Positions 18,377 through 32,321 of a stretch of 64,000 bases of DNA are shown piece after piece. Source of the DNA: Escherichia phage vB_EcoM_JNE01; the sequence record OR670491. One strand, given 5' to 3'. Under the pieces are notes generated by a model. It did not search any database, had not been told where the DNA came from, and worked only from the letters and a program-made list of their open reading frames with translations. A program made the translations under genes and the position numbers. The first letter of the stretch is position 1. Each line of letters begins with the position of its first letter.

Positions 18377-18457
18377 CAGTATTCAGTACTACATGATGGT
18401 CTTCATCCTCCTGGGGTAACATAGTGAAGGTTATGATGGCAGTACTGAATACTCCAA
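18377..18457. repeat. 13-bp inverted repeat agtattcagtact / agtactgaatact flanking about 55 bp
   Basis: read directly from sequence. Confidence 0.5.
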
Positions 18458-18479
18458 ACTCAAGATGGATTAAGGGTGT

Positions 18480-18665
18480 AGTACTGACGGATTTTGGGTG
18501 TAGTTACCCTGGATGGATTTTGGACGTAGATATGTCTAGCCCTCCAGAAGTCTGGAAGTAAAGATGGCTATCCATCTAGACGGCTAAACGGCTAGATTTC
18601 TGGATGGCTGGACGTTTGGACGGCTAAACGGCTAAACGGCTAAACGGCTAAACGTCTGGATGTAT
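18480..18665. repeat. iteron-like cluster: TGGATGG / GGACG units, palindrome agatggctatccatct, and ggctaaacg tandem repeat (x4-5)
   Basis: cggctaaacggctaaacggctaaacggctaaacg at about 18620-18655; several tggatgg copies upstream and downstream. Confidence 0.6.
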
Positions 18666-18897
18666 GGATGGCTAAATCAAAATTTTATTTTGTTTTTTCC
18701 AATAGTTCCCCTACCGCGTGGGGATAGTTTCCCCGCAGTATCTGGTGTTAGATTTTTCTGAATCTGGAATCATTATCTTATAAACTGGGGGCAATGTCAA
18801 CGGCCTGGACGGATATTTTTAAAAATTTTTTCAGTACTGAATTTTGGGCGTAACTATGCACCCGGTGGGCTTGAGTCTTTCTCGACTTGATGGAACT

Positions 18898-18925
18898 ATT
18901 ATACAGTACTGAAAAAATAAAGCAA
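18898..18925 (-). promoter_or_regulatory. minus-strand sigma70-type promoter (TTGCTT-N16-TATAAT) reading into a CCCACCGGGTGC box
   Basis: reverse complement reads attgctttattttttcagtactgtataat; box at about 18864-18880 lies about 25 nt downstream on minus strand. Confidence 0.4.
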
Positions 18926-19290
18926 TACCCTGGAAGCAAAAAAGTTTTAATTAATTTGCTTGCTATCCTGGGCCGGACTATGGTACTATATTTCAGTACT
19001 GAGAAAGTGCGTTTACCTGCTAGGGTGCGGGAGTGTATCCTTTTTTTATATCTTGAATTTTGGACGGATCTTCCCACCCCCTGGGGTATCCGCTTTCTCG
19101 CGTCTATGTAGTAATTATACGCTTTTTCAGGATCAAGTCAATACCTAAAAACAAAATAATTGAAAATAATTTAACGCGTTTAAACGGCCCGTAACGCCCT
19201 GGAATGATTAGAATGGTGCAAATGTATAGCTTAGGTGTATTAATGCGTTAGAATGCGTCTGAGGCCGTTTTATGGGGTGTAGTAGTGATT

Positions 19291-19470
19291 TGGTTGATTC
19301 AGTACTGAATAATAGTACTCCTATATAGAAAGATAGTTCCCCTGGATTGATTCAGTACTGAATGATAGTACTGAATAATAGTACTCCTATATAGAAAGAT
19401 AGTTCCCCTGGATTGATTCAGTACTGAATGATAGTACTGAATAATAGTTCCCCTATATAGAAAGAAAACT
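19291..19470. repeat. tandem direct repeat, about 66-bp unit x about 2.5 (gattcagtactgaatgatagtactgaataatagtactcctatatagaaagatagttcccctggatt)
   Basis: near-perfect copies read directly; the minus-strand ORF 19299..19502 with internally repeated peptide is an artefact of this repeat. Confidence 0.7.
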
Positions 19471-19496
19471 ATTTTAAAAGTATTTGTAGAAAGTAC

Positions 19497-19556
19497 TTGC
19501 ACAGTACTGATAAAAGCGTATAATGTTTTACATCGAGAGCGGGAACTCTTCCCGCT
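19497..19556 (+). promoter_or_regulatory. early promoter (TTGCAC-N16-TATAAT) + 5' GC-rich stem-loop (agcggga...tcccgct)
   Basis: first copy of the recurrent promoter/5'-hairpin module. Confidence 0.6.
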
Positions 19557-19579
19557 ACACTTTAAGAGAGATTAATACG

Positions 19580-19942
19580 ATGGCGACTCAAATCACTAAA
19601 ATCATTGCTAACCTGGTTAACTTCCGCGACGATATGAAAGATCTTCCGGCGGCAACGGTTAAAACTCACATTGACGCATACCGCGAACTGATTAAAATGC
19701 TGCCGCTTAAGCGTGAACAATACGCCGCCACCGTGATGCTTGATGCGATGATCCATAAGATGATCGCCAGTGATTTAACGATGGCTTATCAGTATATGGG
19801 TGAATTGTTCGCGGTGTATAGTAAACCAGTACCAGGAATGGAAAGTACAGAAGTATTACACGGTTTAAATTTAAAACAAGATGCATGGGATAATATGCCT
19901 CGTTTCCTGGTATGGGCTGACAGTGGCAAAATTTACGAATAA
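19580..19942 (+). CDS. hypothetical early protein
   Basis: track ORF starts at 19523 inside the promoter; ATG MATQITK preceded by AAGAGAG RBS is at 19580. Confidence 0.55.
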   Translation: MATQITKIIANLVNFRDDMKDLPAATVKTHIDAYRELIKMLPLKREQYAATVMLDAMIHKMIASDLTMAYQYMGELFAVYSKPVPGMESTEVLHGLNLKQDAWDNMPRFLVWADSGKIYE

Positions 19943-19955
19943 GTTAAAAATTAGT

Positions 19956-20014
19956 TTGACAGTACTGAATAAAAGCGTATAATGTTTTACATCAGGTGGG
20001 GAATAGTTCCCCAC
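19956..20014 (+). promoter_or_regulatory. early promoter (TTGACA-N16-TATAAT) + 5' stem-loop (gtgggga...tccccac)
   Basis: read directly; module immediately upstream of gene 20035. Confidence 0.6.
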
Positions 20015-20034
20015 TATATAAGAGGATTAAAAAA

Positions 20035-20274
20035 ATGGCTAAATCAAAAATGTTCTTAGGTCACAAAAATAAAACTCATTGGAATGTAAGCCTTTGGATT
20101 AATAACGATGAGGGATTGTATCGGTTGGCCCAGGACTTTATTAACGATAGCACTAATCGCAATGATGCGGCCCGTCATATGATGTTATTTTTAGAACAGA
20201 CTGGACAAGATAAAACACCGGACGGATTCAAATATAGCACTACTGCGATCCGTGCGGCAATGGTAGGAATGTAA
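20035..20274 (+). CDS. hypothetical early protein (paralogue of 22076..22315)
   Basis: start MAKSKMF after GAGG RBS; shares GHKNKTHWNVSLWINN...TPDGFKYSTTAIRAAMVGM with 22076..22315. Confidence 0.6.
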   Translation: MAKSKMFLGHKNKTHWNVSLWINNDEGLYRLAQDFINDSTNRNDAARHMMLFLEQTGQDKTPDGFKYSTTAIRAAMVGM

Positions 20275-20360
20275 TAGAATATATTTAAAGTACTATCATT
20301 TTTTTGCGATAGTACTTTATAATAGTGTTTTATTCATACACCAACGATAAGGGCAACAGC

Positions 20361-20627
20361 ATGAATATTAAGTATTTTGCGACGCGTGAACAAGCTCGGA
20401 TCGCCGCTCGCCAGGACGGGGCAACGTTTAAAGATATGGGCGTACAATCGGAACGTGGTAAACGTTGGGCCATTGTAAAGCGTAGTACCGCCAGATCATT
20501 ACAGTACTGGTTAGCGGCCTTAAAAAGTCCCGATAGTGTATCGCGTCGAGTGGTAGAAATAAAGCTCGACCGAAAGGGCAACCGCGTGACCGTGTACCGT
20601 ACTAAAAAGATAGCAGTACTTGAATAA
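20361..20627 (+). CDS. hypothetical early protein (paralogue of 32830..33225)
   Basis: shares FATREQAR...TFKDMG...GKRWA...RKGNRVTVY with 32830..33225; internal ATG of track ORF chosen. Confidence 0.5.
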   Translation: MNIKYFATREQARIAARQDGATFKDMGVQSERGKRWAIVKRSTARSLQYWLAALKSPDSVSRRVVEIKLDRKGNRVTVYRTKKIAVLE

Positions 20628-20633
20628 AAAGTA

Positions 20634-20700
20634 CTTGCAAACTATGTTTAATGGCGTATAATGTTTTACATCGAGAGCGGGAACTCTTCCCGCCTATAAC
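20634..20700 (+). promoter_or_regulatory. early promoter + 5' stem-loop (agcgggaactcttcccgc)
   Basis: acttgcaaactatgtttaatggcgtataat then hairpin. Confidence 0.6.
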
Positions 20701-20714
20701 CTGGAGTAATAAAA

Positions 20715-20945
20715 ATGACTAATATGTATATGACTGAAGTTAAAACCGTAAAAGATACTACCACGAATAAAACTACTTACTTACAGCGGATCTGCGGTGT
20801 ATGGCAACGTATCAGCAAATCAAAGTACTTTAAATTAACATCATATGCAAATCGTTCGGATTCATTCAGTACTGAAATAAAAGGTAATAAAGTACACCAA
20901 TACGGCACTTATTATTATTACAGCCTGGACGCGATTGCAGTATAA
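20715..20945 (+). CDS. hypothetical early protein
   Basis: ORF from track with GGAG RBS. Confidence 0.5.
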   Translation: MTNMYMTEVKTVKDTTTNKTTYLQRICGVWQRISKSKYFKLTSYANRSDSFSTEIKGNKVHQYGTYYYYSLDAIAV

Positions 20946-20977
20946 GCAGTTTACAAATCTTTACAATTGCCGGTATT

Positions 20978-21005
20978 GACTTATTTTGTCAGTACTGGCA
21001 TAATG
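20978..21005 (+). promoter_or_regulatory. promoter (TTGACT-N17-CATAAT with upstream TG) reading into the CCCATAGGGTGC box
   Basis: ttgacttattttgtcagtactggcataat; box at about 21031. Confidence 0.5.
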
Positions 21006-21009
21006 TATT

Positions 21010-21165
21010 CATTGGCAGATAAGCCGTAGCCCATAGGGTGCGGGAGTGTATCTATAGAAAAATTAGTTTAGTATAGTTACAATTGTGCACCCGGTGGGTT
21101 AGCTGTTGTCATGGGGTATATTATGCCAGTACTTGATAATTCTGTCAATACTTTTTTTTTACTAT
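21010..21165. ncRNA. candidate convergently transcribed non-coding locus (plus- and minus-strand promoters facing each other across inverted CCCAYMGGGTGC boxes)
   Basis: plus promoter at 20978-21005; minus promoter at 21120-21148; no ORF; boxes at about 21031 and 21090 form an imperfect long inverted repeat; T9 run at about 21155. Confidence 0.3.
21120..21148 (-). promoter_or_regulatory. minus-strand promoter (TTGACA-N17-CATAAT)
   Basis: reverse complement reads ttgacagaattatcaagtactggcataat. Confidence 0.45.
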
Positions 21166-21189
21166 TCAGTACTGAAAACTATTTTTAAA

Positions 21190-21345
21190 AAGTACTTGCA
21201 AACTATGTTTAAAGGCGTATAATGTTTTACATCAGGACGGGGAACGAAATAAGTAACTTCCCGTTAAGTAGCCCAGGAGTAAGGCACACGAAAAACTCCC
21301 CTGATAAAATAGTTTGACAAATGTTTTTAAAAGCGTATAATACTT
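21190..21345 (+). promoter_or_regulatory. tandem early promoters separated by a conserved about 90-nt leader (caggacggggaacgaaataagtaac...aaaaactcccctgataaaatagtttgacaa)
   Basis: two TTGxxx-N16-17-TATAAT promoters; the leader between them recurs at about 31632-31760 and partially at about 23925-24010. Confidence 0.5.
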
Positions 21346-21373
21346 ACATCAACTACTGAATGAGGGTTACAAA

Positions 21374-21985
21374 ATGAAAACTATCACTACTACTACTTTC
21401 GTTATGGATTTTTCTGAATTGAACGCAGAACAACAAACGTCAGCTATCGAACTGGTTCGGGATCGTGAGCGTTCATGTGAGGATAATTTCTTTGCTGAGG
21501 GCGTTATCGAGTACTATAAAGAAACAGTACTACCAGAATACGGCATAGATGAAGCTGAATTGCAATACAGTGGTTTTTGGTCGCAAGGTGACGGTGCATC
21601 AATCAGTACTGACAGCGTGGACGCAGTGAAGTTTTTACGCAAGATTAAAGCGTTAACGAAATATCGTTCTATCCGTCACTTGTTGAATGAAGATGATTTG
21701 GCAATGAGTGTAGAACGTTCACACTCTCGCTACGCACACGAAAACACGGTAAGCGGGTACATTGAATCGGCTTACACTGATTTAACCGCAAAACAAGAAA
21801 CGTTAGTTAATGAGCTTGAGGAACTACTCACTGATACTATTCGTGAATTGTCCCGCAAGTTGTACCGTGATTTAGAGAATGCATATGAGGATCAATTCAC
21901 TACTGAAAACATTACGGCACTGATTGAGGGTAACGAATATCAATTCAATGTTATTGATGGCGTAGTGGAATCAATCGAATATTAA
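21374..21985 (+). CDS. hypothetical acidic protein
   Basis: 203-aa ORF with GAGGG RBS; strongly acidic composition. Confidence 0.55.
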   Translation: MKTITTTTFVMDFSELNAEQQTSAIELVRDRERSCEDNFFAEGVIEYYKETVLPEYGIDEAELQYSGFWSQGDGASISTDSVDAVKFLRKIKALTKYRSIRHLLNEDDLAMSVERSHSRYAHENTVSGYIESAYTDLTAKQETLVNELEELLTDTIRELSRKLYRDLENAYEDQFTTENITALIEGNEYQFNVIDGVVESIEY

Positions 21986-22075
21986 TTTAAAAAGTACTTG
22001 CAAACTAAGTTTAAAAGCGTATAATACTTTATATCGAGGCGGGGAGTGGTTCCCCGCTCAAACGAGGATTTAAAA

Positions 22076-22315
22076 ATGGCTAGTACTAAAACTTACAACG
22101 GACACAAAAACAAAACTCATTGGAATGTAAGCCTTTGGATTAATAACGGTGAGTCATTGTATCGGCTTGCTCAAAGTTGCATCGCACAAAGTAGAACTAA
22201 AGATATTGCTGCGGAATGTATGTACCGCAGATTAAAAGCCAACGGTACTACTACAACGCCGGACGGCTTTAAGTATAGCACTACTGCGATCCGTGCTGCA
22301 ATGGTTGGAATGTAA
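22076..22315 (+). CDS. hypothetical early protein (paralogue of 20035..20274)
   Basis: start MASTKTY after promoter/hairpin module; conserved block shared with 20035..20274. Confidence 0.6.
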   Translation: MASTKTYNGHKNKTHWNVSLWINNGESLYRLAQSCIAQSRTKDIAAECMYRRLKANGTTTTPDGFKYSTTAIRAAMVGM

Positions 22316-22372
22316 TATTCAGTACTGAGATAATGGCGGGTAATAGTTCCCGCCTTTACTGAGGGTTATCTA

Positions 22373-22633
22373 ATGAGTAAAGTAATTAGCTATACAGCAC
22401 TAAGCAAGACATTATCTATTAGCCAGTGCACCGATGGTTATTGGCTATTTGATGAAACGCGTGGCATGAATTTAGCGATGCGTGCAAAAACTGCTGAGGC
22501 GGCGTATATTCAAGCACTGGAATACTACCAGGAACGTTTAAAGGAAGTAGAAGAAGATTATAAAAGCCTCAAAGCGAAAGTAGATCATTTCGTCGGTCAA
22601 TTCAACGAGGAAGACGACGACAAACAATATTGA
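22373..22633 (+). CDS. hypothetical early protein
   Basis: ORF from track; upstream hairpin gcgggtaatagttcccgc. Confidence 0.5.
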   Translation: MSKVISYTALSKTLSISQCTDGYWLFDETRGMNLAMRAKTAEAAYIQALEYYQERLKEVEEDYKSLKAKVDHFVGQFNEEDDDKQY

Positions 22634-22719
22634 AAAAGTACTTGCAATTAGTTTTCAGTACTGTATAATGGTTTACATCAAAGGGAGAAATGGTTCTCCC
22701 TGGTAATGAGGAAAATAAA

Positions 22720-22941
22720 ATGGCTAATATCACTACTCTTTCCCAACTGGAAGCACTGGTGAAATCTATGCGGGAACATGCCGACAAAATCGGCGTACAA
22801 GATCCAGCCGTTTGCTTCTGCGACGAATTGAATGATGATACCCTGGTAATAGCAGAAGTCCAGGACGTTTCTAACTATTCCTCGCGTTACACTGGCGGCG
22901 TAGCAAATAAAGGCGACTTCTGTTTATACCTTACAAAATAA
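22720..22941 (+). CDS. hypothetical early protein
   Basis: start MANITT after promoter + gggagaaatggttctccc hairpin; track ORF starts upstream at 22690. Confidence 0.55.
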   Translation: MANITTLSQLEALVKSMREHADKIGVQDPAVCFCDELNDDTLVIAEVQDVSNYSSRYTGGVANKGDFCLYLTK

Positions 22942-22944
22942 CAA

Positions 22945-23046
22945 CGCGGGGAGATAATAACTCCCCGTTACTTTTTCAGTACTGAATCATTTAATAGACG
23001 GATCTCGGCACCCGGTGGGTTAGTGACTGTTTCGTCTTGATGTAGT
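22945..23046 (-). ncRNA. candidate minus-strand small RNA with CCCACCGGGTGC box, ending at a bidirectional hairpin
   Basis: minus-strand promoter at 23048-23076; no ORF; hairpin ggggag-ataataa-ctcccc at about 22947-22968 also terminates plus-strand gene 22720..22941. Confidence 0.3.
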
Positions 23047-23047
23047 A

Positions 23048-23076
23048 ATTATGCCAGTACTGGATGCACTTGTCAA
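23048..23076 (-). promoter_or_regulatory. minus-strand promoter (TTGACA-N17-CATAAT with upstream TG)
   Basis: reverse complement reads ttgacaagtgcatccagtactggcataat. Confidence 0.5.
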
Positions 23077-23184
23077 CAACTATTTTTCAAATACTTTTTA
23101 TTAAAATACTTGCAATTAGTTTTTAAACGCGTATAATGTTTTGCATAGGGGGAGCGGTTCCCCTGGTAACTAAGGAATAATAAA

Positions 23185-23421
23185 ATGCTTGAACAAATCA
23201 AATCAACGTCTGCGAATGTAACGGGAACGGTATCACACTTTACTAGTGATGAATCGCGTGGTGTTCCTTATTGTGCTGTACATGTAAACACTGATGGCAA
23301 CTACTGGTTTACGGTTTACGGATCATATTCATTTGGACGGCCAGGGCATCAAAAAATTCTGGATAAAGTACAACCAACGGGTAAAAATATCACTGCCGAA
23401 ATGTTTTATAAAAAATCATAA
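23185..23421 (+). CDS. hypothetical early protein
   Basis: ORF from track, preceded by promoter + ggggagcggttcccc hairpin. Confidence 0.55.
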   Translation: MLEQIKSTSANVTGTVSHFTSDESRGVPYCAVHVNTDGNYWFTVYGSYSFGRPGHQKILDKVQPTGKNITAEMFYKKS

Positions 23422-23505
23422 AGTACTTGCAATTAGTTTTTAGTACTGTATAATATTTTACATCGCAAGGGGAAACGGTTTCCCCTGGTAACTAAGGATA
23501 ATCAA

Positions 23506-23805
23506 ATGAAAGTTGCAATCATCGCCCTGGCTTTATCTGTATCGTCTTTCGCTGTTAACGCTTCCGTTGATGTACCGCGTGAAAAATTCATTCAGTGCAC
23601 TGTTGCAATGACTAACGAGGAAACGGCTGAGATTGTTACCAAATCCCTGGAACTGGCCCCTGCAATGTTTGCTAATGGCCCGTACCATGAAGAAGATGAT
23701 CAGGGTAGCACGACCATCTATTACGATGCAAAAAGTAAACGCGGTTCAGTTACTGTAATGGATACTGAGAAAGTTACATTCACGGGAGTAATTAATTGTT
23801 TTTAA
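23506..23805 (+). CDS. secreted or periplasmic hypothetical protein (N-terminal signal peptide)
   Basis: MKVAIIALALSVSSFAVNA-SVD: basic start, hydrophobic core, AxA-type cleavage motif. Confidence 0.6.
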   Translation: MKVAIIALALSVSSFAVNASVDVPREKFIQCTVAMTNEETAEIVTKSLELAPAMFANGPYHEEDDQGSTTIYYDAKSKRGSVTVMDTEKVTFTGVINCF

Positions 23806-23823
23806 TGAAGTACTGAATCATAA

Positions 23824-23850
23824 GCCCACTATAAGAAGTGGGCTTTTTTT
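23824..23850 (+). terminator. rho-independent terminator
   Basis: gcccact-ataagaa-gtgggc followed by T7. Confidence 0.65.
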
Positions 23851-24035
23851 ATTGTAGTACTGAATACTTTAAAAATAGTTTTGAAATAGTAGTTGACATT
23901 ACCAGGGAAAGGCGTAGAATGTATTACATCAGGACGGGGAACACTAAGTAGACCGCCAGTAAGTCGAACGAAAAACTGGACACGACCTGGAAACTTTGAT
24001 AAACTAACTTACACTTTAATTGAGGAATTAAAAAA

Positions 24036-24515
24036 ATGGCAAATGTAAAATCATTCTTTAAAGCACTGGTATCTTCTGACGTATCTATCGCCGCTGAATT
24101 GCTGGCTGACCTGGATAATGATACCATGAAAGCAGTACGCAATAATTTTAATATGGCGTACAGTGCAGCAAAAGAACTGCAAGCCAAAAAGGTAGCAGAA
24201 CTGGAAGCGGCAAAGGCAGAACGTGAAGCAGAACTGCAAGCAACAATCGAAAGCATCCAGGCGGCGGTAAGTGGATTGGATATCGAGATCGTAACCGATA
24301 TGGCACATAAAGCCCTAGCTGCAAAATACGGTGAAGTAAAAGCGGTTAAAGAAAAGAAATGGATTCAGGACCGCGTTAACGTAGTACTTGACAACGGGGA
24401 AGAATATCTTATTCCTGTACGCGGTAACTGCATTGCCGTAGTACTGGACGCGATTAACTCCAGTGGTATGACACGCGAGGAATGGATCGAAGCTCATCGC
24501 AAAGTTGAAGCATAA
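24036..24515 (+). CDS. hypothetical protein with predicted coiled-coil segment
   Basis: 159-aa ORF; alanine/glutamate/lysine-rich heptad-like stretch AKELQAKKVAELEAAKAEREAELQA. Confidence 0.55.
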   Translation: MANVKSFFKALVSSDVSIAAELLADLDNDTMKAVRNNFNMAYSAAKELQAKKVAELEAAKAEREAELQATIESIQAAVSGLDIEIVTDMAHKALAAKYGEVKAVKEKKWIQDRVNVVLDNGEEYLIPVRGNCIAVVLDAINSSGMTREEWIEAHRKVEA

Positions 24516-24536
24516 CAATAAAAGTACTGAATCACT

Positions 24537-24563
24537 AGCCCACCTTAAACGGTGGGCTTTTTT
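24537..24563 (+). terminator. rho-independent terminator
   Basis: agcccacc-ttaaac-ggtgggct followed by T6. Confidence 0.65.
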
Positions 24564-24790
24564 GTGTTTATCGTTTACCAGGCCACCAGCACCGCCTAGA
24601 AACGATTCTAACGCATTAAACTGATTATCTGATGCATTGCCCTAGCTGGTGGCGTTAAGGCTGTAAGAACGCGATTGAGAGCGTTTAAAGTATTTTGCAA
24701 AAAGTAATAAAAAGTACTTGCACGATTAAGAGATTAGCGTATAATTAATTACATCAAGGCAAGACACCTTAACTAACTGAGGATATAAAG

Positions 24791-24943
24791 ATGAATACTT
24801 ATGACCTGGATTGTTTTACTTTACAAGTAATGTCAGTATGCAGTAAGAAAGATTGGTCATCAAAGGAATTTAAAGCAGTTATCGCGTGTGCAAAACACGG
24901 CAAGACTATCAATGAAACGGCATCAATCATTGATAAACTTTAA
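24791..24943 (+). CDS. small hypothetical protein (50 aa, below ORF-track cutoff)
   Basis: hand-translated ORF downstream of promoter aaaagtacttgcac...gcgtataat with GAGGA RBS. Confidence 0.4.
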   Translation: MNTYDLDCFTLQVMSVCSKKDWSSKEFKAVIACAKHGKTINETASIIDKL

Positions 24944-24951
24944 AAAATAGT

Positions 24952-24980
24952 TTGACAATAGTTTTAAGTACTGGCATAAT
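24952..24980 (+). promoter_or_regulatory. early promoter (TTGACA-N17-CATAAT with upstream TG)
   Basis: ttgacaatagttttaagtactggcataat. Confidence 0.6.
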
Positions 24981-25012
24981 ACATACATCAACTACTGAAT
25001 AGGAATTAAAAA

Positions 25013-25240
25013 ATGGCTATTATCATTACTCGCGTATCTGGTACTACTGGCAACGAACAAGTAGTTGCAGTCATTACCAACAAGGAAGGTGCGGAATTGC
25101 AAAATGCAATGAATACCTGGGCCGTTAATGAGTTCGGTCAGTGGGCAAGTGTAGCATACATTGAAACCTATCAAGTGCCGTCGATTAGTTTAACTGATTT
25201 GGGCGTTGAGCGTATCCTTTGCCTGGATGAATTAAATTAA
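25013..25240 (+). CDS. hypothetical early protein
   Basis: ORF from track; AGGAA RBS. Confidence 0.55.
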   Translation: MAIIITRVSGTTGNEQVVAVITNKEGAELQNAMNTWAVNEFGQWASVAYIETYQVPSISLTDLGVERILCLDELN

Positions 25241-25325
25241 AAAAGTACTTGCAAAGTAAATCGAATAAAGTATAATACATTACATCAAGGGGAGAAATGG
25301 TTCTCCCCACTACAAGGAAACTAAA

Positions 25326-25469
25326 ATGAAAACTTGTCAATGTGGTCATAAATCTATTACGGGTTTTAAGCGGGGCGTTGCTCTTTGCCAGTACCATTAT
25401 AATTTACAAGTATGGGGTAAAGAATGGGCCGACCAGGTGGAAGCAGCAAAGAAAGCAAAAAGTAAGTAA
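25326..25469 (+). CDS. small cysteine-containing hypothetical protein (47 aa)
   Basis: hand-translated ORF after promoter + ggggagaaatggttctcccc hairpin; CQCGH...CQYH pattern suggests possible metal binding. Confidence 0.4.
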   Translation: MKTCQCGHKSITGFKRGVALCQYHYNLQVWGKEWADQVEAAKKAKSK

Positions 25470-25557
25470 AATATTATCACAGTACTATTGACATAGTTTG
25501 ATAGTACTGGCATAATAGATTTTATCAAGACAACATATTAATTTAAGGAATACAAAA

Positions 25558-25881
25558 ATGGCTAAAACTATCATTAACACCGTTTCCCTGGCTGCAATCC
25601 GTGCAATCAATGTTGACGGTAAACGTTGGACTGATACATATGGCAATACTTATCATTCTTGTCATGTAAGCGTTGAACTGGATAACGGTTTGAATGATCT
25701 GGCGGTTGAATCATTTACTTATGGCTATGAAGATGCATATCAACAAACGGCGTTAGATCTATTAAAGGAATCAGTAGACGGGCTTAATACTGATGAAACC
25801 TCCCTTACTCGTTTGTGCAATGATCTTAATATCCCGTTGCATTGTACTGTACAGAATGTTAAACGCAAAAAAGATCTTTAA
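25558..25881 (+). CDS. hypothetical early protein (paralogue of 32407..32730)
   Basis: shares RWTD..GNTYHSC.VS...TFTYGY...VKRKKD with 32407..32730. Confidence 0.6.
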   Translation: MAKTIINTVSLAAIRAINVDGKRWTDTYGNTYHSCHVSVELDNGLNDLAVESFTYGYEDAYQQTALDLLKESVDGLNTDETSLTRLCNDLNIPLHCTVQNVKRKKDL

Positions 25882-25961
25882 TTAGCTTTACTTTATGCAG
25901 ATACTTTGATATAGTGTCTGCATAGGGGAAAGAAATTAAATTAACTTAAGAGGATCGTATA

Positions 25962-26231
25962 ATGAAAAATATCAGTACTTTAATCGATACAGGTACTCAT
26001 GTTCGTCGGTCTATGGTTGCAACCAGTACTACAAAACAAGTACCAAGCGGTTATCTTGTATTTGTGCACGATGGTAAACTCCTGGAACGTTCAATCAATT
26101 TTGATGTTAAAAACAATTGCCGTTTTATTATCTTTAAGCGTGAGCAATATAAAATTGATTTACCAGCAAAGCCCATAAGCGGGGCGTACAACGTGCAATC
26201 ATTGTTTGAACGTCAACCATACACCTATTAA
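25962..26231 (+). CDS. hypothetical early protein
   Basis: ORF from track with AAGAGGA RBS. Confidence 0.5.
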   Translation: MKNISTLIDTGTHVRRSMVATSTTKQVPSGYLVFVHDGKLLERSINFDVKNNCRFIIFKREQYKIDLPAKPISGAYNVQSLFERQPYTY

Positions 26232-26282
26232 TCAAAACATCGTTAGCGGTCGATTTAGGCCGCGTATATTGGGGATTATACC

Positions 26283-26555
26283 ATGAACGTTAATCAAGTA
26301 CTGAATGAGATCGAAAGCATCATTAAACCAATGAAACGCATTGATGCTATGTTAACACCGGAAGAATGCCGCCTTTATGAGCGTTACAGCGTCGAACAAG
26401 TCCAGGCAATGGCTATGGCTACCCCAGCCGTTAAACCGCCTGAGAATGCGTTACAGGACGTTACAGGGGATTATATCATCAATCCAGTACTAGGGAAGAT
26501 GGCTGCAATCACCGAAGATCAACAAGATTACTTAAGTCAGTACTTAAAAGGTTAA
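26283..26555 (+). CDS. hypothetical early protein
   Basis: ORF from track. Confidence 0.45.
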   Translation: MNVNQVLNEIESIIKPMKRIDAMLTPEECRLYERYSVEQVQAMAMATPAVKPPENALQDVTGDYIINPVLGKMAAITEDQQDYLSQYLKG

Positions 26556-26560
26556 TTAAT

Positions 26561-26770
26561 ATGCTTACTGTACAGGATAAGATCGACATCTTAAAGGTTA
26601 ATATGTATGTGATTGATGCAGTACCTGGTAAAGTATTTGCATACGATGACAGTACTGTAAGCGATTTCTACTATAGCCAGGACGTGGGGGATCTTTCTGT
26701 ACAGTCGGTTATTGAAAACGTAGTTAATGCAGCGTATGAGCATTTACTTTCAAATAGTACTTGCAATTAG
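26561..26770 (+). CDS. hypothetical early protein
   Basis: ORF from track, closely following previous gene. Confidence 0.45.
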   Translation: MLTVQDKIDILKVNMYVIDAVPGKVFAYDDSTVSDFYYSQDVGDLSVQSVIENVVNAAYEHLLSNSTCN

Positions 26771-26839
26771 TTTTTAAACGCGTATAATGTTTTACATGAA
26801 GGGGAGAAATGATTCTCCCCACTAATTAAGGAATATGAA

Positions 26840-26986
26840 ATGAAAGCATCAAAAAAGAGTAATACTAAGAAAGCACGTTCAACCTTAGATGGGGTATTCC
26901 CTTTACGTTTCGTTGATGAAGTGGTGTCCTACCCGCCGGGCCTTACTCCTGAGATGGTAGAAAGTTTGCGTAAATCTAAAAAATAG
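26840..26986 (+). CDS. small basic hypothetical protein (48 aa)
   Basis: hand-translated ORF after promoter + ggggagaaatgattctcccc hairpin and AAGGAA RBS. Confidence 0.4.
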   Translation: MKASKKSNTKKARSTLDGVFPLRFVDEVVSYPPGLTPEMVESLRKSKK

Positions 26987-27067
26987 TACTTGCAATTAGT
27001 TTTTAGTACTGTATAATAGTTTACATGAAGGGGAGAAATGATTCTCCCCAATAACAGGAGAATCAAA

Positions 27068-27220
27068 ATGAAACAATACAACGCTCGGTTTGATGTTACT
27101 ATCGGTAACGGCAAAGGTCAATTCTCTTTCAGTACTCGCAAAAGTTATACAGAAAACTTCCTGCGTAATTGTGCACTGACCGCCGCTCAAATTAAACATT
27201 ACTTTCAGGCTAAAAAATGA
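27068..27220 (+). CDS. small hypothetical protein
   Basis: start MKQYNAR after promoter/hairpin and AGGAG RBS; track ORF begins upstream at 27038. Confidence 0.5.
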   Translation: MKQYNARFDVTIGNGKGQFSFSTRKSYTENFLRNCALTAAQIKHYFQAKK

Positions 27221-27306
27221 AAACATTAGCTTACTATAGTTCGGCCCTGGTCGGTGCATTGATCGCGGCGTTGTTAGTAACCTATCTATTCTTTATGGTG
27301 ATTTAA
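27217..27306 (+). CDS. small hydrophobic peptide (29 aa), possible membrane peptide
   Basis: hand-translated ORF MKTLAYYSSALVGALIAALLVTYLFFMVI; ATGA-coupled on both sides. Confidence 0.3.
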   Translation: MKTLAYYSSALVGALIAALLVTYLFFMVI

Positions 27307-27450
27307 ATGAATCCAACAGGTTTAAACTATAAAAGTTGTTCGGCGTTTACGAAAGCAAATAAAGCGAATGCACGTAAAGCGAAAGTACAAGAATACATCA
27401 AGCAAGGCATGACGCGAAAGGCGGCGATTCTAAAAGCTAAAAATAAATGA
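27307..27450 (+). CDS. small lysine-rich basic protein (47 aa)
   Basis: hand-translated ORF coupled to upstream peptide. Confidence 0.3.
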   Translation: MNPTGLNYKSCSAFTKANKANARKAKVQEYIKQGMTRKAAILKAKNK

Positions 27451-27560
27451 AAAAAGTGGTTGACTCCGGTCAGCCATTTTGCTATTATATATTCATTGAG
27501 AGATAGCTCACTAGCCCACAGGGTGCATAAGTGTATCTATTATATGAGTATTGAGTACTG
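27451..27560 (+). promoter_or_regulatory. repeat module: hairpin with embedded TTGACT -35, TATTAT -10, CCCACAGGGTGC box
   Basis: one of four full copies (also about 31468-31575, 34741-34850, 37487-37625). Confidence 0.5.
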
Positions 27561-27671
27561 AAAACTATTTTAAAAGTATTTGTAGAAAGTACTTGCAAAC
27601 TATCTCAATAAGCGTATAATGTTTTACATCGAAAGGGGAAACGGTTTCCCCTGATAATAAGGAAACAAATC

Positions 27672-28013
27672 ATGACTATCTCAATTGCTCAATCTAACTT
27701 TGAAAACGAAATCATCGCCCAGGCACTGCGTTTAAATGATGGTCGGGCCGAAATTAATTACGGTTTCAATTCAGGCGGTTGTGAAAAATATCAGTACTTT
27801 GTAACGGCTGATGGCGGTGTCCTGGGTATCAATACAGTTATTGTAAACATCCAAAAAATTAATTTCAATGATCCAGACGATAGCCAGTTTTACATCACTG
27901 GCGTAGACGTGAACTATGAGGATGACTCACTAACTGATGATCACACTGGTGAGAAGTTAGAGAGTGCATACGGTGAAGATGATTATCAGTCAGTACCGGA
28001 AGATTTTGAATAA
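27672..28013 (+). CDS. hypothetical acidic protein
   Basis: ORF from track after promoter + aggggaaacggtttcccct hairpin; acidic C-terminal third. Confidence 0.55.
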   Translation: MTISIAQSNFENEIIAQALRLNDGRAEINYGFNSGGCEKYQYFVTADGGVLGINTVIVNIQKINFNDPDDSQFYITGVDVNYEDDSLTDDHTGEKLESAYGEDDYQSVPEDFE

Positions 28014-28027
28014 TATTAAAAAAATAG

Positions 28028-28086
28028 TTTGACAATAGATTATAGTACTGTATAATAGTTTACATCAAGGGGAGAAAAACTTCTCC
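28028..28086 (+). promoter_or_regulatory. early promoter (TTGACA-N16-TATAAT) + 5' stem-loop (ggggagaaaaacttctcccc)
   Basis: read directly. Confidence 0.6.
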
Positions 28087-28110
28087 CCACTAACAGAGAG
28101 AGAAAACAAA

Positions 28111-28323
28111 ATGGCTAATATCTGCACTGTACTGAAAAATGCAAAACAAGTTTTATTTTCTGATCACGATCATTTAAACAAGGATATTACTGGCGTTCGG
28201 AATATCAAAGATGTAAAAAGTGTTATGGGTATCTATTGCAATATGAAACGTGTTGGAACGTTCGGCGACAAAGTACTATACCAGGCAGGGGATTACAATT
28301 TTACACTGACTATCATTAACTAA
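28111..28323 (+). CDS. hypothetical early protein
   Basis: ORF from track. Confidence 0.55.
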   Translation: MANICTVLKNAKQVLFSDHDHLNKDITGVRNIKDVKSVMGIYCNMKRVGTFGDKVLYQAGDYNFTLTIIN

Positions 28324-28415
28324 AAATATATTACCAGTACTATTAAATCTATTGACAACGTTTGATAGTACTGACATAATAACTTTTATCAACTACACTA
28401 CTAAGGAATTAAAAA

Positions 28416-28595
28416 ATGGCTATCATCGCAAAAACTGAAATCGTTGGTCTGGATTCTATCATCATGACGTTTGAAGATCAAAAAGGTATGTATGTAGTTT
28501 CATATGGTGATTATGTTCGGGAGTATGAAACGGTAGACGAAGCCTTTGAAAGTTATATTCGCCAGGTGAATAAAGCATACGACGACTACCGCTAA
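28416..28595 (+). CDS. small hypothetical protein (59 aa)
   Basis: hand-translated ORF after ttgacaacgtttgatagtactgacataat promoter and AAGGAA RBS. Confidence 0.45.
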   Translation: MAIIAKTEIVGLDSIIMTFEDQKGMYVVSYGDYVREYETVDEAFESYIRQVNKAYDDYR

Positions 28596-28685
28596 AATAT
28601 ATTACCAGTGCTATTGACAAAGTTTGATAGTACTGTATAATAAGTTTTATAAACAGTAGTTAACTTAACCTAAGAGAGAAATAAA

Positions 28686-28829
28686 ATGATCGCACTGGAT
28701 TCATTCATCGACGCAGTACTGGCAAAAACTGGCGAGGATCTGACCGCAGAACAATACGCGATGATCGAGCAATGTCAGCAAAACGGTAAATCGGTGAAAG
28801 ATACTGTTAAGATTATCCGCAAGATGTAA
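28686..28829 (+). CDS. small hypothetical protein (47 aa)
   Basis: hand-translated ORF after ttgacaaagtttgatagtactgtataat promoter. Confidence 0.45.
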   Translation: MIALDSFIDAVLAKTGEDLTAEQYAMIEQCQQNGKSVKDTVKIIRKM

Positions 28830-28836
28830 GATTATA

Positions 28837-28866
28837 GCCCACTGGTTAACGCTGGTGGGCTTTAAT
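28837..28866 (+). terminator. hairpin terminator containing a Chi octamer
   Basis: gcccac-tggttaacgctg-gtgggc then TTTAATCCTTT; GCTGGTGG lies in the loop/3' arm. Confidence 0.45.
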
Positions 28867-28928
28867 CCTTTACCCTATACAATGCCAGTACTCAACCGTT
28901 TATCTCGTTAGAATGCGTTACAGGACGT

Positions 28929-29132
28929 TTGACAATGATTAGCATGAAATCAGTACAAAAACAAATAGAAACATTATCAAAAATTAAACGTAAACAGTAC
29001 TCGTTAGAATATACAATCAATGGTAACTATCATCTAATGAAAGAGAATAATTTTATCGTCATTGATGAATCATTGCAAGTTATTAGTATAGTACTGAAAG
29101 CATTAATCAATGACAGAAAAAAATTAAAATAA
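28929..29132 (+). CDS. hypothetical protein (uncertain start)
   Basis: track ORF with TTG start and no clear RBS. Confidence 0.3.
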   Translation: MTMISMKSVQKQIETLSKIKRKQYSLEYTINGNYHLMKENNFIVIDESLQVISIVLKALINDRKKLK

Positions 29133-29136
29133 TCTA

Positions 29137-29165
29137 TTGACAATATCCTCCAGTACTGGCATAAT
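29137..29165 (+). promoter_or_regulatory. promoter (TTGACA-N17-CATAAT) heading a long leader with CCCATAGGGTGC box
   Basis: ttgacaatatcctccagtactggcataat; about 300-nt leader before gene 29462. Confidence 0.55.
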
Positions 29166-29221
29166 ACTTACATCAAGACGAGAACGTCGCTAACCCATAG
29201 GGTGCACAAATGTAACTATAT

Positions 29222-29300
29222 AATATCGATCAATAAATGATCAAAAAAGTACTGGATCAATTTAGCATAAGGCGTATAATTCTGATCAATTCTTGATCAA
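29222..29300. promoter_or_regulatory. cluster of five GATC sites (tgatcaa-type repeats) around a TATAAT element upstream of the TraR/DksA-like gene
   Basis: GATC at about 29228, 29239, 29255, 29284, 29295, as cgatcaat / tgatcaaa / ggatcaat / tgatcaat / tgatcaaa. Confidence 0.5.
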
Positions 29301-29461
29301 AGGCAATATACGCAGTTGAATTTATATAGACAGTACAAAGGCGTTACTATCCGTGGTAATGCTGGTGGATATGTAGTATCATATGGTTTGAATAAGATAA
29401 ACACTAGTAGTATTATTGTAGCATTACAGTACTATAGTATTTTTATAATGAGGTTAAAATA

Positions 29462-29719
29462 ATGGCAGTAGGATACGCGAAAGACGGGGCCGAACAAGAC
29501 GAGATTCACGCAGTGATTCAGGCCGCCGTTAACCACGCTAGAAAGCAAATTAACGCACAAAGAGAATCACTGGTACATTGCCTCGACTGCGGCGATAAAA
29601 TCCCTGAGAATCGACGCCAGGCCGTTATAGGGTGCATGTATTGTATTACTTGCCAGGAGGATCATGATAGTACTTTTAAAAGAGATCCGCGTAATTGTTG
29701 GCATAGATCTATGAGATAA
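29462..29719 (+). CDS. TraR/DksA-family C4 zinc-finger protein (putative RNA polymerase-binding regulator)
   Basis: CLDCGDKIPENRRQAVIGCMYCITCQ matches the TraR/DksA zinc-finger pattern CxxC...IPxxR...CxxCQ; 85 aa; GAGG RBS. Confidence 0.65.
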   Translation: MAVGYAKDGAEQDEIHAVIQAAVNHARKQINAQRESLVHCLDCGDKIPENRRQAVIGCMYCITCQEDHDSTFKRDPRNCWHRSMR

Positions 29720-29725
29720 AAAGTA

Positions 29726-29753
29726 TTGACAGTACTGAAAGATAGTGTATAAT
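29726..29753 (+). promoter_or_regulatory. early promoter (TTGACA-N16-TATAAT)
   Basis: ttgacagtactgaaagatagtgtataat. Confidence 0.6.
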
Positions 29754-29782
29754 GTTTTATATCTTAACTGAGGATAGTAATC

Positions 29783-30139
29783 ATGGGAATACAACATATC
29801 ACGCGTACTACTGACAATGGCGAGATCACTGGTTATCAGGTACAGGGCAAAGTAGCACAATTGCAGTACTGGTTTGTTAAACGTGGAATCATTGCACCGG
29901 ATCTTGATTATGACCGTGTAGCGTTTATTGATTCTCTTTATGTTGATCCTGATAGTCGGGGCAATGGTGAAGGTAACGAATTAATGAATGCCTTTATTGA
30001 TGCCGCCGATGATTCAGATTGTATCATCTTAGAATGCGATACGGGAGAAGATAACGCCTTTAATCTTAAAGAATGGTACGAAGGTTTCGGATTCGAGGTA
30101 CTGATCGATAGTGAATATCCTATCATGATTTTATCATAG
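29783..30139 (+). CDS. hypothetical early protein
   Basis: ORF from track with GAGGA RBS. Confidence 0.55.
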   Translation: MGIQHITRTTDNGEITGYQVQGKVAQLQYWFVKRGIIAPDLDYDRVAFIDSLYVDPDSRGNGEGNELMNAFIDAADDSDCIILECDTGEDNAFNLKEWYEGFGFEVLIDSEYPIMILS

Positions 30140-30217
30140 TACTTGCATTTAGTTTTCAGTACTGTTATAGTACTTGCATCAAGGGGAAACATCTTCCCCT
30201 ACTAAGAGGAAATAAAA

Positions 30218-30406
30218 ATGGAAAACTTATCAAGTATTTTAGTACAAGATGATTTCGGTAATCCTGGAAGTGCTATCATTGTTCGGGGCAATAAAGCAAC
30301 GTTTGTTATTGCTGGTGGACCCGTACAGCGTAGCATTAAAAATAATGCTGTTACCATTAATAATGTACGCTATCGCTTAGATAAAGAATTAATTCATAAA
30401 CTGTAA
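30218..30406 (+). CDS. small hypothetical protein
   Basis: ORF after promoter + aggggaaacatcttcccct hairpin. Confidence 0.5.
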   Translation: MENLSSILVQDDFGNPGSAIIVRGNKATFVIAGGPVQRSIKNNAVTINNVRYRLDKELIHKL

Positions 30407-30433
30407 TATTAATTTAATAGAGGATAACAATAA

Positions 30434-30757
30434 ATGTACATTCATACTACTATCACAAAGGAAGTCCGTTGCCAGTTCGAAAGTATTCCGGGCGTATGTT
30501 TCATCACTGGTACGTTTTCCCCTGGTGATCGTGATAATCCAGTACTGTTACAATTACGCCATCCATCATGGGATAAAGCATTTGATCTACCGTTGAATGA
30601 ATTCGCAACTACTGCTGAAAAGTACATTAAAAATATTCGCGAGAATGATCGACTATTCATTAATGCTTTTAGTGATGCCGCGTTAAGTGAGATCCATGCT
30701 GTATTGGTTGCAATCATGGAATCAATGGAGAAAACTATATTCAAACAAGGTGAATAA
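30434..30757 (+). CDS. hypothetical early protein
   Basis: ORF from track with GAGGA RBS. Confidence 0.55.
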   Translation: MYIHTTITKEVRCQFESIPGVCFITGTFSPGDRDNPVLLQLRHPSWDKAFDLPLNEFATTAEKYIKNIRENDRLFINAFSDAALSEIHAVLVAIMESMEKTIFKQGE

Positions 30758-30763
30758 AAACTA

Positions 30764-30822
30764 TTGACAATGCAATCCAGTACTGTATAATAGTTTACAT
30801 GAAGGAGAGAAATGATTCTCCC
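30764..30822 (+). promoter_or_regulatory. early promoter (TTGACA-N16-TATAAT) + 5' stem-loop (gagagaaatgattctc)
   Basis: read directly. Confidence 0.6.
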
Positions 30823-30840
30823 CACTAAGAGGAAAGAAAA

Positions 30841-31053
30841 ATGCAAGGTCAACTAATCGTTCGTAAATGGTCTGATACTAACGAAAAACCGTGGGATGTA
30901 CAATACATCGCCCCAAATGGTGAATCCAGATATCAACCAGGTGTAACGCATAGTACTGAGCAATTCGCCGCCGCTCATCGCGAACGTCTGTTACAATCAA
31001 TGCAGCAAGGTTCCGGTGAAAAATTCATTCAGGATCATTGGCTGAAAGATTAA
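30841..31053 (+). CDS. hypothetical early protein
   Basis: ORF from track. Confidence 0.55.
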   Translation: MQGQLIVRKWSDTNEKPWDVQYIAPNGESRYQPGVTHSTEQFAAAHRERLLQSMQQGSGEKFIQDHWLKD

Positions 31054-31139
31054 AAAGTACTTGCACAGTACTGAATAAAGTGTATAATGTTTTATATCGG
31101 AAGGGGAATAGTTCCCCTCCGAACAAAGAGGAAAGTATA

Positions 31140-31313
31140 ATGGTCCAGGTAGAATTAACAGTACTGAAAGATCTGTTTTATCGGATTGGTACTACTGGCG
31201 AATATCCGAAGGGTGATAATGCAAAACTTTACGTATCACTCGACTTATGGCAACGCGAACAATTAGCAACGGCCTGGCGTAAAGGCAAAGCAGATAGCGA
31301 GGTGAAAGCATGA
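31140..31313 (+). CDS. small hypothetical protein
   Basis: track ORF 31038..31313 begins with TTG inside promoter; ATG MVQVELT after AGAGGAAAG RBS at 31140. Confidence 0.5.
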   Translation: MVQVELTVLKDLFYRIGTTGEYPKGDNAKLYVSLDLWQREQLATAWRKGKADSEVKA

Positions 31314-31459
31314 AAGAATTCTTATTTGAAGTAGTGTTTCAAGGTGTCGGTAATAACCAACTGATTCGATCAAGTGGTTATAATGTTAACCAGGCATGGA
31401 ATAACATTAAACAAATGTACCCGAACGCTATCACATATCGCAACCCGAAAGAAGTTTAA
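31310..31459 (+). CDS. small hypothetical protein (49 aa)
   Basis: hand-translated ORF, ATGA-coupled to upstream gene. Confidence 0.35.
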   Translation: MKEFLFEVVFQGVGNNQLIRSSGYNVNQAWNNIKQMYPNAITYRNPKEV

Positions 31460-31467
31460 AAATAATT

Positions 31468-31575
31468 GAAAAAGGGATTGACTCCGGTCAGTCCCTTTGT
31501 TATTATATACGCATAGAAACAAATTAGCCCACCGGGTGCATAAATGTATCTATTGTTTGCTGGTGGCTAGTACTG
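31468..31575 (+). promoter_or_regulatory. repeat module: hairpin gggattgactccggtcagtccc with embedded -35, TATTAT -10, CCCACCGGGTGC box, Chi octamer
   Basis: copy of the 27451-27560 module; GCTGGTGG at about 31559. Confidence 0.5.
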
Positions 31576-31631
31576 AAAACTATTTTTAAAAAGTACTTGC
31601 ATTGTACTTAGAATCAAGTATAATGTTTTAC

Positions 31632-31760
31632 ATCAGGACGGGGAACGAAATAAGTAACCCCGTTAAGTAGTCCAGGAGTAAGACATACGAAAAACTCCCC
31701 TGATAAAATAGTTTGACAATAGAAAGTAAACGAGTATAATACTTACATCAACCACTGATA
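31632..31760 (+). promoter_or_regulatory. conserved about 90-nt leader between tandem promoters (copy of 21228-21345)
   Basis: caggacggggaacgaaataagtaaccccgttaagtagtccaggagtaagacatacgaaaaactcccctgataaaatagtttgacaa. Confidence 0.5.
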
Positions 31761-31773
31761 AGGAAACATAAAA

Positions 31774-32049
31774 ATGCGGATTCTACTGACAGCTAACGAA
31801 ATCGAACAAGTACTGACTACTAATCTGGAACAATGGAAACGTGAAGCAGATATCCAGGCGGTTCAATGCCTTAACGATAAGTTAACGCCAGATGACTTAA
31901 GCACGATTGTTGATCCACAATTTTATGAAGATATTCACGACACGTCTTTAAGCGTCGAGGATGTACTTGATAAGCACTACATTGATACTGATTTACATGT
32001 TTACGGTCGTAAAAACTTTATCACTATTCACGACATTTACAATACTTAA
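31774..32049 (+). CDS. hypothetical early protein
   Basis: ORF from track. Confidence 0.55.
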   Translation: MRILLTANEIEQVLTTNLEQWKREADIQAVQCLNDKLTPDDLSTIVDPQFYEDIHDTSLSVEDVLDKHYIDTDLHVYGRKNFITIHDIYNT

Positions 32050-32052
32050 GTA

Positions 32053-32110
32053 TTGACAAAGTATCTTAGTACTGTATAATAGTTTACATCAAGGGGGGGA
32101 ATGGTTCCCC
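32053..32110 (+). promoter_or_regulatory. early promoter (TTGACA-N16-TATAAT) + 5' stem-loop; module duplicated at 32322-32380
   Basis: ttgacaaagtatcttagtactgtataatagtttacatcaaggggg...ggttcccctcc; duplicate differs only in G-run length. Confidence 0.6.
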
Positions 32111-32318: not shown

Positions 32319-32321
32319 GTA

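Follow-up and report, generated by a model that had tools for sequence, protein, structure and literature searches.

A tandem array of MetJ metbox-like units in the terminal repeat leader of an Asteriusvirus jumbo phage, and its possible role as a decoy operator

The 64-kb stretch of DNA analysed here (the window) belongs to an Asteriusvirus, a jumbo myovirus of the PBECO4/121Q-like group with a genome of ~350 kb, and its positions 17400-19600 are 84-91% identical to 43 such genomes. The hosts of the closest relatives are E. coli or Salmonella. Credible genes are missing from the window over about 2 kb (roughly 17440-19520), a gap that is conserved in all annotated relatives and that contains an array of short tandem repeats. 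Positions 18400-18780 map to approximately bp 632-1022 of the related records in which the terminal repeats are resolved (fEgEco12, vB_Ec-M-J, BF17, E9.1, CRJP21, and ELP-22). The direct terminal repeats of fEgEco12 are 20,993 bp long, as determined with PhageTerm and then confirmed by restriction digests (PMC13070987), and a terminal redundancy of about 20 kb was reported for phage G17 from read coverage (PMC6563267). Base 1 of fEgEco12 aligns with position 17757 of the window and the end of its repeat (base 20,993) with position ~38972. We therefore infer that the left physical end of the genome is at 17757, with the array at a distance of 806-917 bp from it. The array lies in the 1.8-kb gene-free leader of the terminal repeat, and falls within the annotated 'Direct Terminal Repeats' of vB_Ec-M-J and the 'redundant repeat' of Pectobacterium phage CBB. 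A motif scan of the window found no array at the right repeat boundary near 38972.

Several other features surround the leader. Nine consecutive minus-strand ORFs of 358-447 aa occupy 2114-13382, and the ORFs of phages GAP32 and Kaldavass at the corresponding position are annotated as RCC1-like. About 10 tandem plus-strand ORFs of approximately 60 aa each, at 15599-17439, end at the repeat boundary and have a negative GC skew. Between 17 and 59 bp outside the left repeat boundary, the 10-bp repeat CAGAATGATT is present in 4.3 copies (17698-17740); it is not conserved in fEgEco12, and the junction shares only ...CACTA on one side and AGTAGGCAG on the other. The inferred left end opens with a terminator-like hairpin (GGCAGA-GGAAG-TCTGCC) at 17757-17785 with a T run after it. 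For pEa_SNUABM_12 and XbC2, the records begin at the position equivalent to 17757 with TATCT[TG][CT]TCCTGAAGTC..., and the start of the XbC2 record contains ATCTGTT, which may correspond to the class II pause signal of T7 RNA polymerase. A 66-bp tandem repeat (19301-19465; 2.5 copies, 97% matches) that contains AGTACTGAATAAT sub-repeats closely precedes the first gene of the terminal repeat.

The array itself has a period of 8 bp. Tandem Repeats Finder (TRF) reported 4.4 copies of ACGGCTAA with 100% matches and a score of 70, together with degenerate arrays of period 16 and 48 nested over 18576-18676. When the sequence was printed in steps of 8, the register was continuous over 14 units (112 bp), with weaker in-register traces extending back to 18522 (Table 1). 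The ACGGCTAA run is a real repeat, far beyond chance. A search found five copies of GGCTAAACG in the 64-kb window, every one confined to the array (18582-18654), where 0.17 were expected, and none of 100 shuffles reached five copies. The double unit GGCTAAACGGCTAAAC, with up to three mismatches, gave five matches versus 0.35 expected. No second cluster of the motif was found elsewhere in the window, where the array is unique. The preliminary description had placed cggctaaacg, repeated four to five times head-to-tail, at about 18620-18655. TRF confirmed a repeat at that place but with a period of 8 bp rather than 9-10 bp, and the 9- and 10-mer units are merely overlapping readings of this one period. 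Likewise, the TGGATGG and GGACG motifs that had been described as separate flanking elements turned out to be diverged units in the same 8-bp register, and the supposed palindrome agatggctatccatct (18562-18577) is imperfect, with 6-bp arms (AGATGG and CCATCT) around CTAT, and constitutes the first two units of the array. The interval originally assigned to the repeat (18480-18665) does hold it, except for its left part (18480-18520), which is not repeat.

Table 1. Features of the terminal repeat leader and the array (positions in the window)
Feature	Position	Strand	Basis or remark
Inferred direct terminal repeat, ~21.2 kb	17757..38972	+	Homology to fEgEco12
Rightward sigma-70 promoter, 12/12 consensus, upstream of array	18125..18152	+	Consensus match
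Weak promoter-like site, 9/12	18302-18329	+	Consensus match
Five weaker in-register units: GGACGTAG ATATGTCT AGCCCTCC AGAAGTCT GGAAGTAA	18522..18561	+	Register print-out
Core array, 14 contiguous 8-bp MetJ-metbox-like units	18562..18673	+	MetJ matrix scan
Core array unit order, first part: AGATGGCT ATCCATCT AGACGGCT AAACGGCT AGATTTCT GGATGGCT GGACGTTT GGACGGCT			
Core array unit order, second part: AAACGGCT x3 AAACGTCT GGATGTAT GGATGGCT			
Perfect ACGGCTAA x4.4 run, lineage-specific homogenised stretch of array	18620..18654	+	TRF, alignment
A+T-rich tract AAATCAAAATTTTATTTTGTTTTTTCC, directly 3' of array	18674..18700	.	Sequence
Conserved hairpin just downstream of array	18712..18740	+	RNAalifold
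Leftward sigma-70-type promoter TTGACA-17-GATAAT, 11/12	18772..18800	-	Would read back through array toward genome end

The array and its surroundings are conserved among related jumbo phages. Homologous arrays of 12-15 boxes that keep the register are found in 12 Asteriusvirus genomes, which aligned over the array with 96% mean column identity and differ by indels of exactly 8 bp (Turkey3) or 16 bp (G17). Among the aligned relatives, the perfect GGCTAAAC run is found in this phage only. All 11 of the others have diverged units (GGCTAAAC GGCTAGAT GGTTACAC GTCTGG) at the columns of the run, which makes the run the product of recent homogenisation within an older array. The A+T-rich tract is nearly invariant in the 12 Asteriusvirus genomes, and a T-rich tract is present 3' of the array in other genera. 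The hairpin downstream of the array is predicted to have 10 pairs, five of which show compensatory double changes across three genera (RNAalifold), and a T.G wobble that pairs on the plus strand only is kept in six of seven sequences. Phage 121Q keeps both hexamers of the leftward promoter, and the spacer between them has diverged.

Beyond the genus, the array is homologous in Eneladusvirus (pEa_SNUABM_12 and, by BLAST match only, Serratia phage BF), in Mimasvirus (GAP32 and XbC2), and in Erwinia phage Kaldavass. The arrays used as queries from phages PGT2 and Pontus also matched Pectobacterium phage CBB at bp 705-809, inside its annotated repeat. In relatives of the Eneladusvirus/Mimasvirus type the array lies ~650-810 bp from the record start, and the record starts of pEa_SNUABM_12 and XbC2 coincide with the left end of fEgEco12. 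The in-register conservation across phage genera supports the general idea of the preliminary description that it is an array of protein-binding sites.

The box consensus of the array is RRAYGKCT, and when the shared unit G[GT]CT[AG][AG]A[CT] is shifted by four bases it becomes a tandem of the metbox recognised by MetJ, AGACGTCT. Sites were scored with the half-metbox bit matrix and the site rule of Augustus and Spicer (PMC3228920), for which a box has to reach 3.145 bits (a quarter of the consensus) and a site is at least two contiguous boxes that sum to at least 12.58 bits. The core array was the sole qualifying MetJ site in the 64-kb window, with a total of 105.3 bits, and each of its 14 boxes (5.5-10.7 bits) passed the single-box threshold. 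By hand scoring with the published matrix, two of the five weaker units (ATATGTCT and AGAAGTCT) also exceeded that threshold, and 121Q has an additional site of four boxes at the equivalent place. Only the known operators were recovered from a control of 5.8 kb of E. coli K-12 DNA (metJ-metB-metL-metF), namely those of metJ/metB (31.2 bits) and metF (24.9 bits). The best site in 100 Markov-simulated windows had 20.9 bits, and even when each is taken in its best frame, no more than 0.7% of all 8-bp tandem-repeat classes score at least 7.5 bits per box.

The resemblance to the E. coli MetJ operators extends to the contiguous head-to-tail placement of the 8-bp boxes and to their base preferences. 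After symmetrisation, the base frequencies in 152 boxes taken from 12 phage arrays and those in 832 natural half-metboxes are correlated with a Pearson r of 0.96. Phage and natural frequencies, respectively, are A.82/G.17 versus.76/.16 at position 1, G.78 versus.67 at position 2, and C.68/T.21 versus.69/.26 at position 4, and the phage boxes reproduce the secondary base preferences of natural half-metboxes as well. The metF/metB boxes AAACGGAT and AGATGTAT are near-identical to the array boxes AAACGGCT and GGATGTAT. There are also differences from the bacterial operators. The metJ/metB and metF operators have four boxes each as opposed to 14 in the phage array, and the array, for which binding of MetJ is a prediction, is located in a terminal repeat where it regulates no met gene. 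No met genes are present, and no promoter-like site overlaps the core array, which therefore fails the usual context of an operator. Moreover, G at box position 6 (GGCT for GTCT) is five times commoner in the phage boxes (49%) than in natural metboxes (10%), and with this base in half of them the phage boxes lack the symmetry that one would expect of sites for a symmetric dimer. All non-symbiont Enterobacterales have MetJ (PMC3228920), and, judging from the hosts of the closest relatives, the host of this phage is inferred to carry it.

Array queries in BLAST searches also matched phages that are not homologous to the jumbo phages, always in non-coding DNA and either within terminal repeats or at, or close to, the ends of the genome. 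The T7-like phage PGT2 has nine boxes at bp 38-109 (BLAST match at bp 40-112 of its record), the array of KPV811 (Drulisvirus) is 66-121 bp from an end (BLAST match at 70-150 bp), and in T5-like phages of Vibrio the array is 22-608 bp from the record start, with 15 boxes and 111.7 bits in Pontus and nine boxes in pVp-1. T5-like phages of Aeromonas were matched as well. The same box consensus thus occurs in Autographiviridae, Demerecviridae, and Rak2-like myoviruses, and in these three phage families the arrays are at most ~1 kb from a terminal-repeat boundary. A matrix scan found no metbox arrays in T5 and T7, though both infect MetJ-bearing E. coli. MetJ is limited to Enterobacterales, Pasteurellales, Vibrionales, Aeromonadales, and Alteromonadales (PMC3228920). 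The hosts of the matched phages are Escherichia, Salmonella, Klebsiella, Cronobacter, Erwinia, Pectobacterium, Serratia, Vibrio, and Aeromonas, a correlation that is biased since the BLAST queries came from such phages; the sole exception is XbC2 ('Xanthomonas'), which over the array region is nearly identical to an Erwinia phage. A loose version of the pattern matched at least 120 loci from many phyla in species-representative bacterial genomes, including bacteria without MetJ; we regard these loci as a background of tandem repeats with 8-bp units, which says nothing about a restriction to MetJ orders. Searches of 5,426 complete E. coli genomes and 72,556 plasmids revealed no array of this kind. 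The environmental viral contig 3300031658_004036 from IMG/VR has 36 consecutive GTCTAGAT/GTCCAGAT boxes (356 bits with the MetJ matrix) at 7257-7544, near a contig end and ~5 kb from a terminase gene. The closest isolate match of this terminase is a Pseudoalteromonas phage, although the match is weak and Achromobacter phages also match. A second array-bearing IMG/VR contig gave no host match.

The Vibrio phages invite a comparison with T5, in which repeat region 3 has been described as an 'injection stop signal' with DnaA boxes and a proposed involvement of host DNA-binding proteins (Davison, bioRxiv 10.1101/866236). Like that region, the leader of the jumbo phage is a large untranslated repeat-rich region in a long terminal repeat for which a host DNA-binding protein is proposed. 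In the Vibrio T5-like phages, the metbox-type array fits exactly into the interval that separates the DnaA-box inverted repeats from the GTGCAAATCCGAC (DRD) repeats, which corresponds to the injection-stop region of T5, and it adjoins a GCGC motif that resembles a nick site. T5 itself has no metbox array at that spot but other repeats of the AATGAGAATCATT type, which presumably are Fur-box-like. The jumbo phage differs from T5 in that its array is near the outer rather than the inner end of the repeat and is without DnaA boxes.

A tblastn search of 50,697 phage records found no MetJ homologue, and nine ORFs that flank the arrays of the window, PGT2, and Pontus gave no match to a DNA-binding domain, so any protein that binds the arrays is probably of host origin. 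Since one consensus is found in three phage families, a shared host factor is the simplest reading. Judging from the boxes, the most likely role of the array, and one to which we give about an even chance, is that of a high-capacity decoy operator for MetJ. The decoy role is favoured because the array overlaps no promoter and has 3-7 times more boxes than a chromosomal met operator. Host MetJ, as a ribbon-helix-helix repressor with S-adenosylmethionine (SAM) as its co-repressor, would bind cooperatively with one dimer per box, and MetJ-SAM dimers would then coat ~110 bp of the phage DNA. As the array would be present in both terminal repeats and be multiplied by replication, MetJ could be drawn off the host met regulon. 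The MetJ coat may also form a SAM-dependent roadblock between the convergent promoters of the leader, either as a by-product of titration or as an alternative to it.

Titration loci and arrays of sites for ribbon-helix-helix proteins are known from other systems, such as datA for DnaA, the heptads bound by omega, and the 8-bp boxes bound by ParG. Like these, the phage array has many contiguous copies of a short site, far beyond the needs of simple repression. The difference is that datA, omega, and ParG sites bind a cognate protein encoded by the element itself or the chromosome, whereas here a lytic phage would carry sites for a metabolic repressor of its host. Derepression of the met regulon would be of doubtful benefit to T5-type phages because these phages degrade the host DNA early, and the location of the arrays near a repeat boundary in three families hints at a role related to the genome ends that a pure decoy does not explain. 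A broader proposal, which we put forward tentatively and consider somewhat less probable than its being mistaken, is that at least three unrelated families of lytic phages (Rak2-like jumbo myoviruses, T5-like, and T7-like) with MetJ-bearing gammaproteobacteria as hosts carry MetJ super-operators of 9-15 or more boxes in their terminal repeats or at, or close to, their genome ends and use MetJ either as a titratable target, to reprogram methionine and SAM metabolism, or as a SAM-sensing structural protein in DNA entry, end protection, or packaging.

A link to packaging is not absurd given that the array is near the physical genome end, and the preliminary description had pointed to the terminase small subunit as a possible binder. 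The array would in that case bind this subunit or an accessory factor and mark or pause the motor near the repeat boundary, and it would resemble the short-repeat arrays, SRL and SRR, that Dunn and Studier reportedly described in and beside the terminal repeat of T7. The distance of 806 bp from the inferred left cut site, the closeness of the PGT2 and KPV811 arrays to the ends and of the Vibrio T5-like arrays to the record starts, and the equivalent places of the T7 arrays are all consistent with such a role. The T7 repeats are likewise short, direct, and non-coding, they lie no more than a few hundred bp from the ends of a genome with exact terminal repeats, and a leftward host promoter is nearby in both phages (A0 at bp 224 in T7, 18800-18772 here); in PGT2 and KPV811, a metbox-type array takes the place of the intra-repeat units of T7. 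The T7 unit, however, is CCTAAAG, with irregular spacing and a metbox score of zero. We nevertheless consider binding by a terminase unlikely, since a distance of 0.8 kb would be large for an element that marks a cut site, there is no array at the other repeat boundary, and the 10-bp CAGAATGATT repeat just beside the cut is by its position the nearer candidate for terminase recognition. In addition, the box consensus is common to T7-like, T5-like, and Rak2-like families, whose terminases presumably are unrelated, and is thus not specific to a terminase lineage; its recurrence argues against any phage-specific terminase or initiator and for a host factor. Another reading of similarly low probability is that the array is an operator or centromere-like site for a phage-encoded ribbon-helix-helix protein of the omega, ParG, or CopG type, with a MetJ-like specificity that is coincidental. 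Contiguous repeats of 7-8 bp are a hallmark of the arrays bound by such proteins (the heptads of omega, the 8-bp period of ParG), and the geometry of the phage array fits this pattern, just as boxes that are consistently asymmetric, owing to G at position 6, would fit a reader other than MetJ. Yet neither the search of the phage records for a MetJ homologue nor that of the nine flanking ORFs for such a domain found a candidate, and one consensus in three unrelated families would require repeated transfer of protein and sites together.

The remaining alternatives appear considerably weaker. That the array is a functionless, slippage-prone minisatellite in non-coding terminal DNA is very improbable, even though the perfect run of 4.4 copies occurs in this phage alone, the number of boxes differs by whole units among isolates (12 to 15), and bacterial genomes commonly have 8-bp repeats that fit the loose pattern. 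A degenerate array of similar length is held in register across three genera (67% mean column identity in the aligned region), its substitutions are confined to alternatives that MetJ tolerates, and it is found nowhere else in the window. The iterons of a replication origin bound by a phage initiator, as the preliminary description would have had it, are a very improbable identity for the array. The A+T-rich tract does adjoin it, the cumulative GC-skew minimum of the window is at 17.2-17.4 kb, with negative skew at 13.4-17.4 kb despite the plus-strand ORFs, and the arrays of the Vibrio T5-like phages adjoin DnaA boxes. The units are 8 bp and contiguous, though, and not helically phased units of 17-22 bp; DnaA boxes (with up to one mismatch) are absent from the interval 16448-21478, and the window shows no enrichment of them; the 27-bp tract is the sole A+T-rich element; and six flanking ORFs showed no initiator-like domain and no informative Pfam match. 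Furthermore, the skew is positive again at 1-2000, which makes the minimum local to the window, and part of the negative skew coincides with the block of minus-strand genes. In T5, the origins are located mid-genome according to Davison (bioRxiv 10.1101/866236). The least probable of these readings is that the array is transcribed, for instance as part of a leader or antisense RNA, and that an RNA-binding protein recognises the repeats. The array does have promoters directed at it on either side, and the covarying hairpin 3' of it has the strand-specific T.G wobble, but contiguous 8-nt units leave no room for a structured presentation, GGA motifs of the CsrA type are not at conserved positions, and an Rfam search of 16.5-20.5 kb at a permissive threshold returned only chance-level matches to miRNA and scaRNA families. 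A CsrA-sponge RNA was rejected as GGA is not conserved and is absent from the dominant AAACGGCT unit.

While the MetJ-type operator is well known, its phage context and larger scale are new. A full-text literature search found no paper that links metboxes or MetJ with phage genomes or their terminal regions, and literature searches on the repeat strings and on T7 SRL/SRR found nothing relevant. If MetJ binds these arrays, they would represent a phage cis-element that is built from the operator of a metabolic repressor of the host, and several unrelated phages may recruit or soak up host MetJ. The element would be present in many coliphages that are candidates for therapy, including the Asteriusvirus jumbo phages, and it would link the SAM and methionine status of the host to the phage DNA. 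Short-repeat arrays close to the ends of terminal-repeat phages have long gone unexplained, and the element would also provide a concrete molecular candidate for these, one that would cover the injection-stop repeat region of the T5-like Vibrio phages as well.

Two further sequence elements are concentrated in the terminal repeat. Chi sites are found in the window as 11 copies of GCTGGTGG on the plus strand and two of CCACCAGC (18346 and 24583), which together span 18247-37611. All 13 are inside the inferred terminal repeat and none is in the other 43 kb; approximately 0.11 would be expected per strand. In fEgEco12, the repeat of 20,993 bp likewise holds all of the corresponding 10 and two sites. 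Most of the sites have the orientation in which they are active for RecBCD that enters at the right end of the genome, and the site at 18346, which is 590 bp in, is oriented for entry from the left end. The array units do not appear to act as a Chi-like decoy, a possibility that was rejected as units such as GCTGGATG differ from Chi at two or more positions. The hexamer AGTACT occurs 307 times in the 64 kb, where we estimate about 20 from base composition, and the palindrome CAGTACTG occurs 61 times versus 1.2 expected. The flanks of AGTACT are not conserved. It often overlaps or lies within sigma-70-like promoters, for example AGTACTTGCA-N-TATAAT at ~19490-19525, and it may be a regulator-binding site. 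The hexamer is denser in the terminal repeat, with 6.6 per kb, than outside, with 3.4-4.6 per kb.
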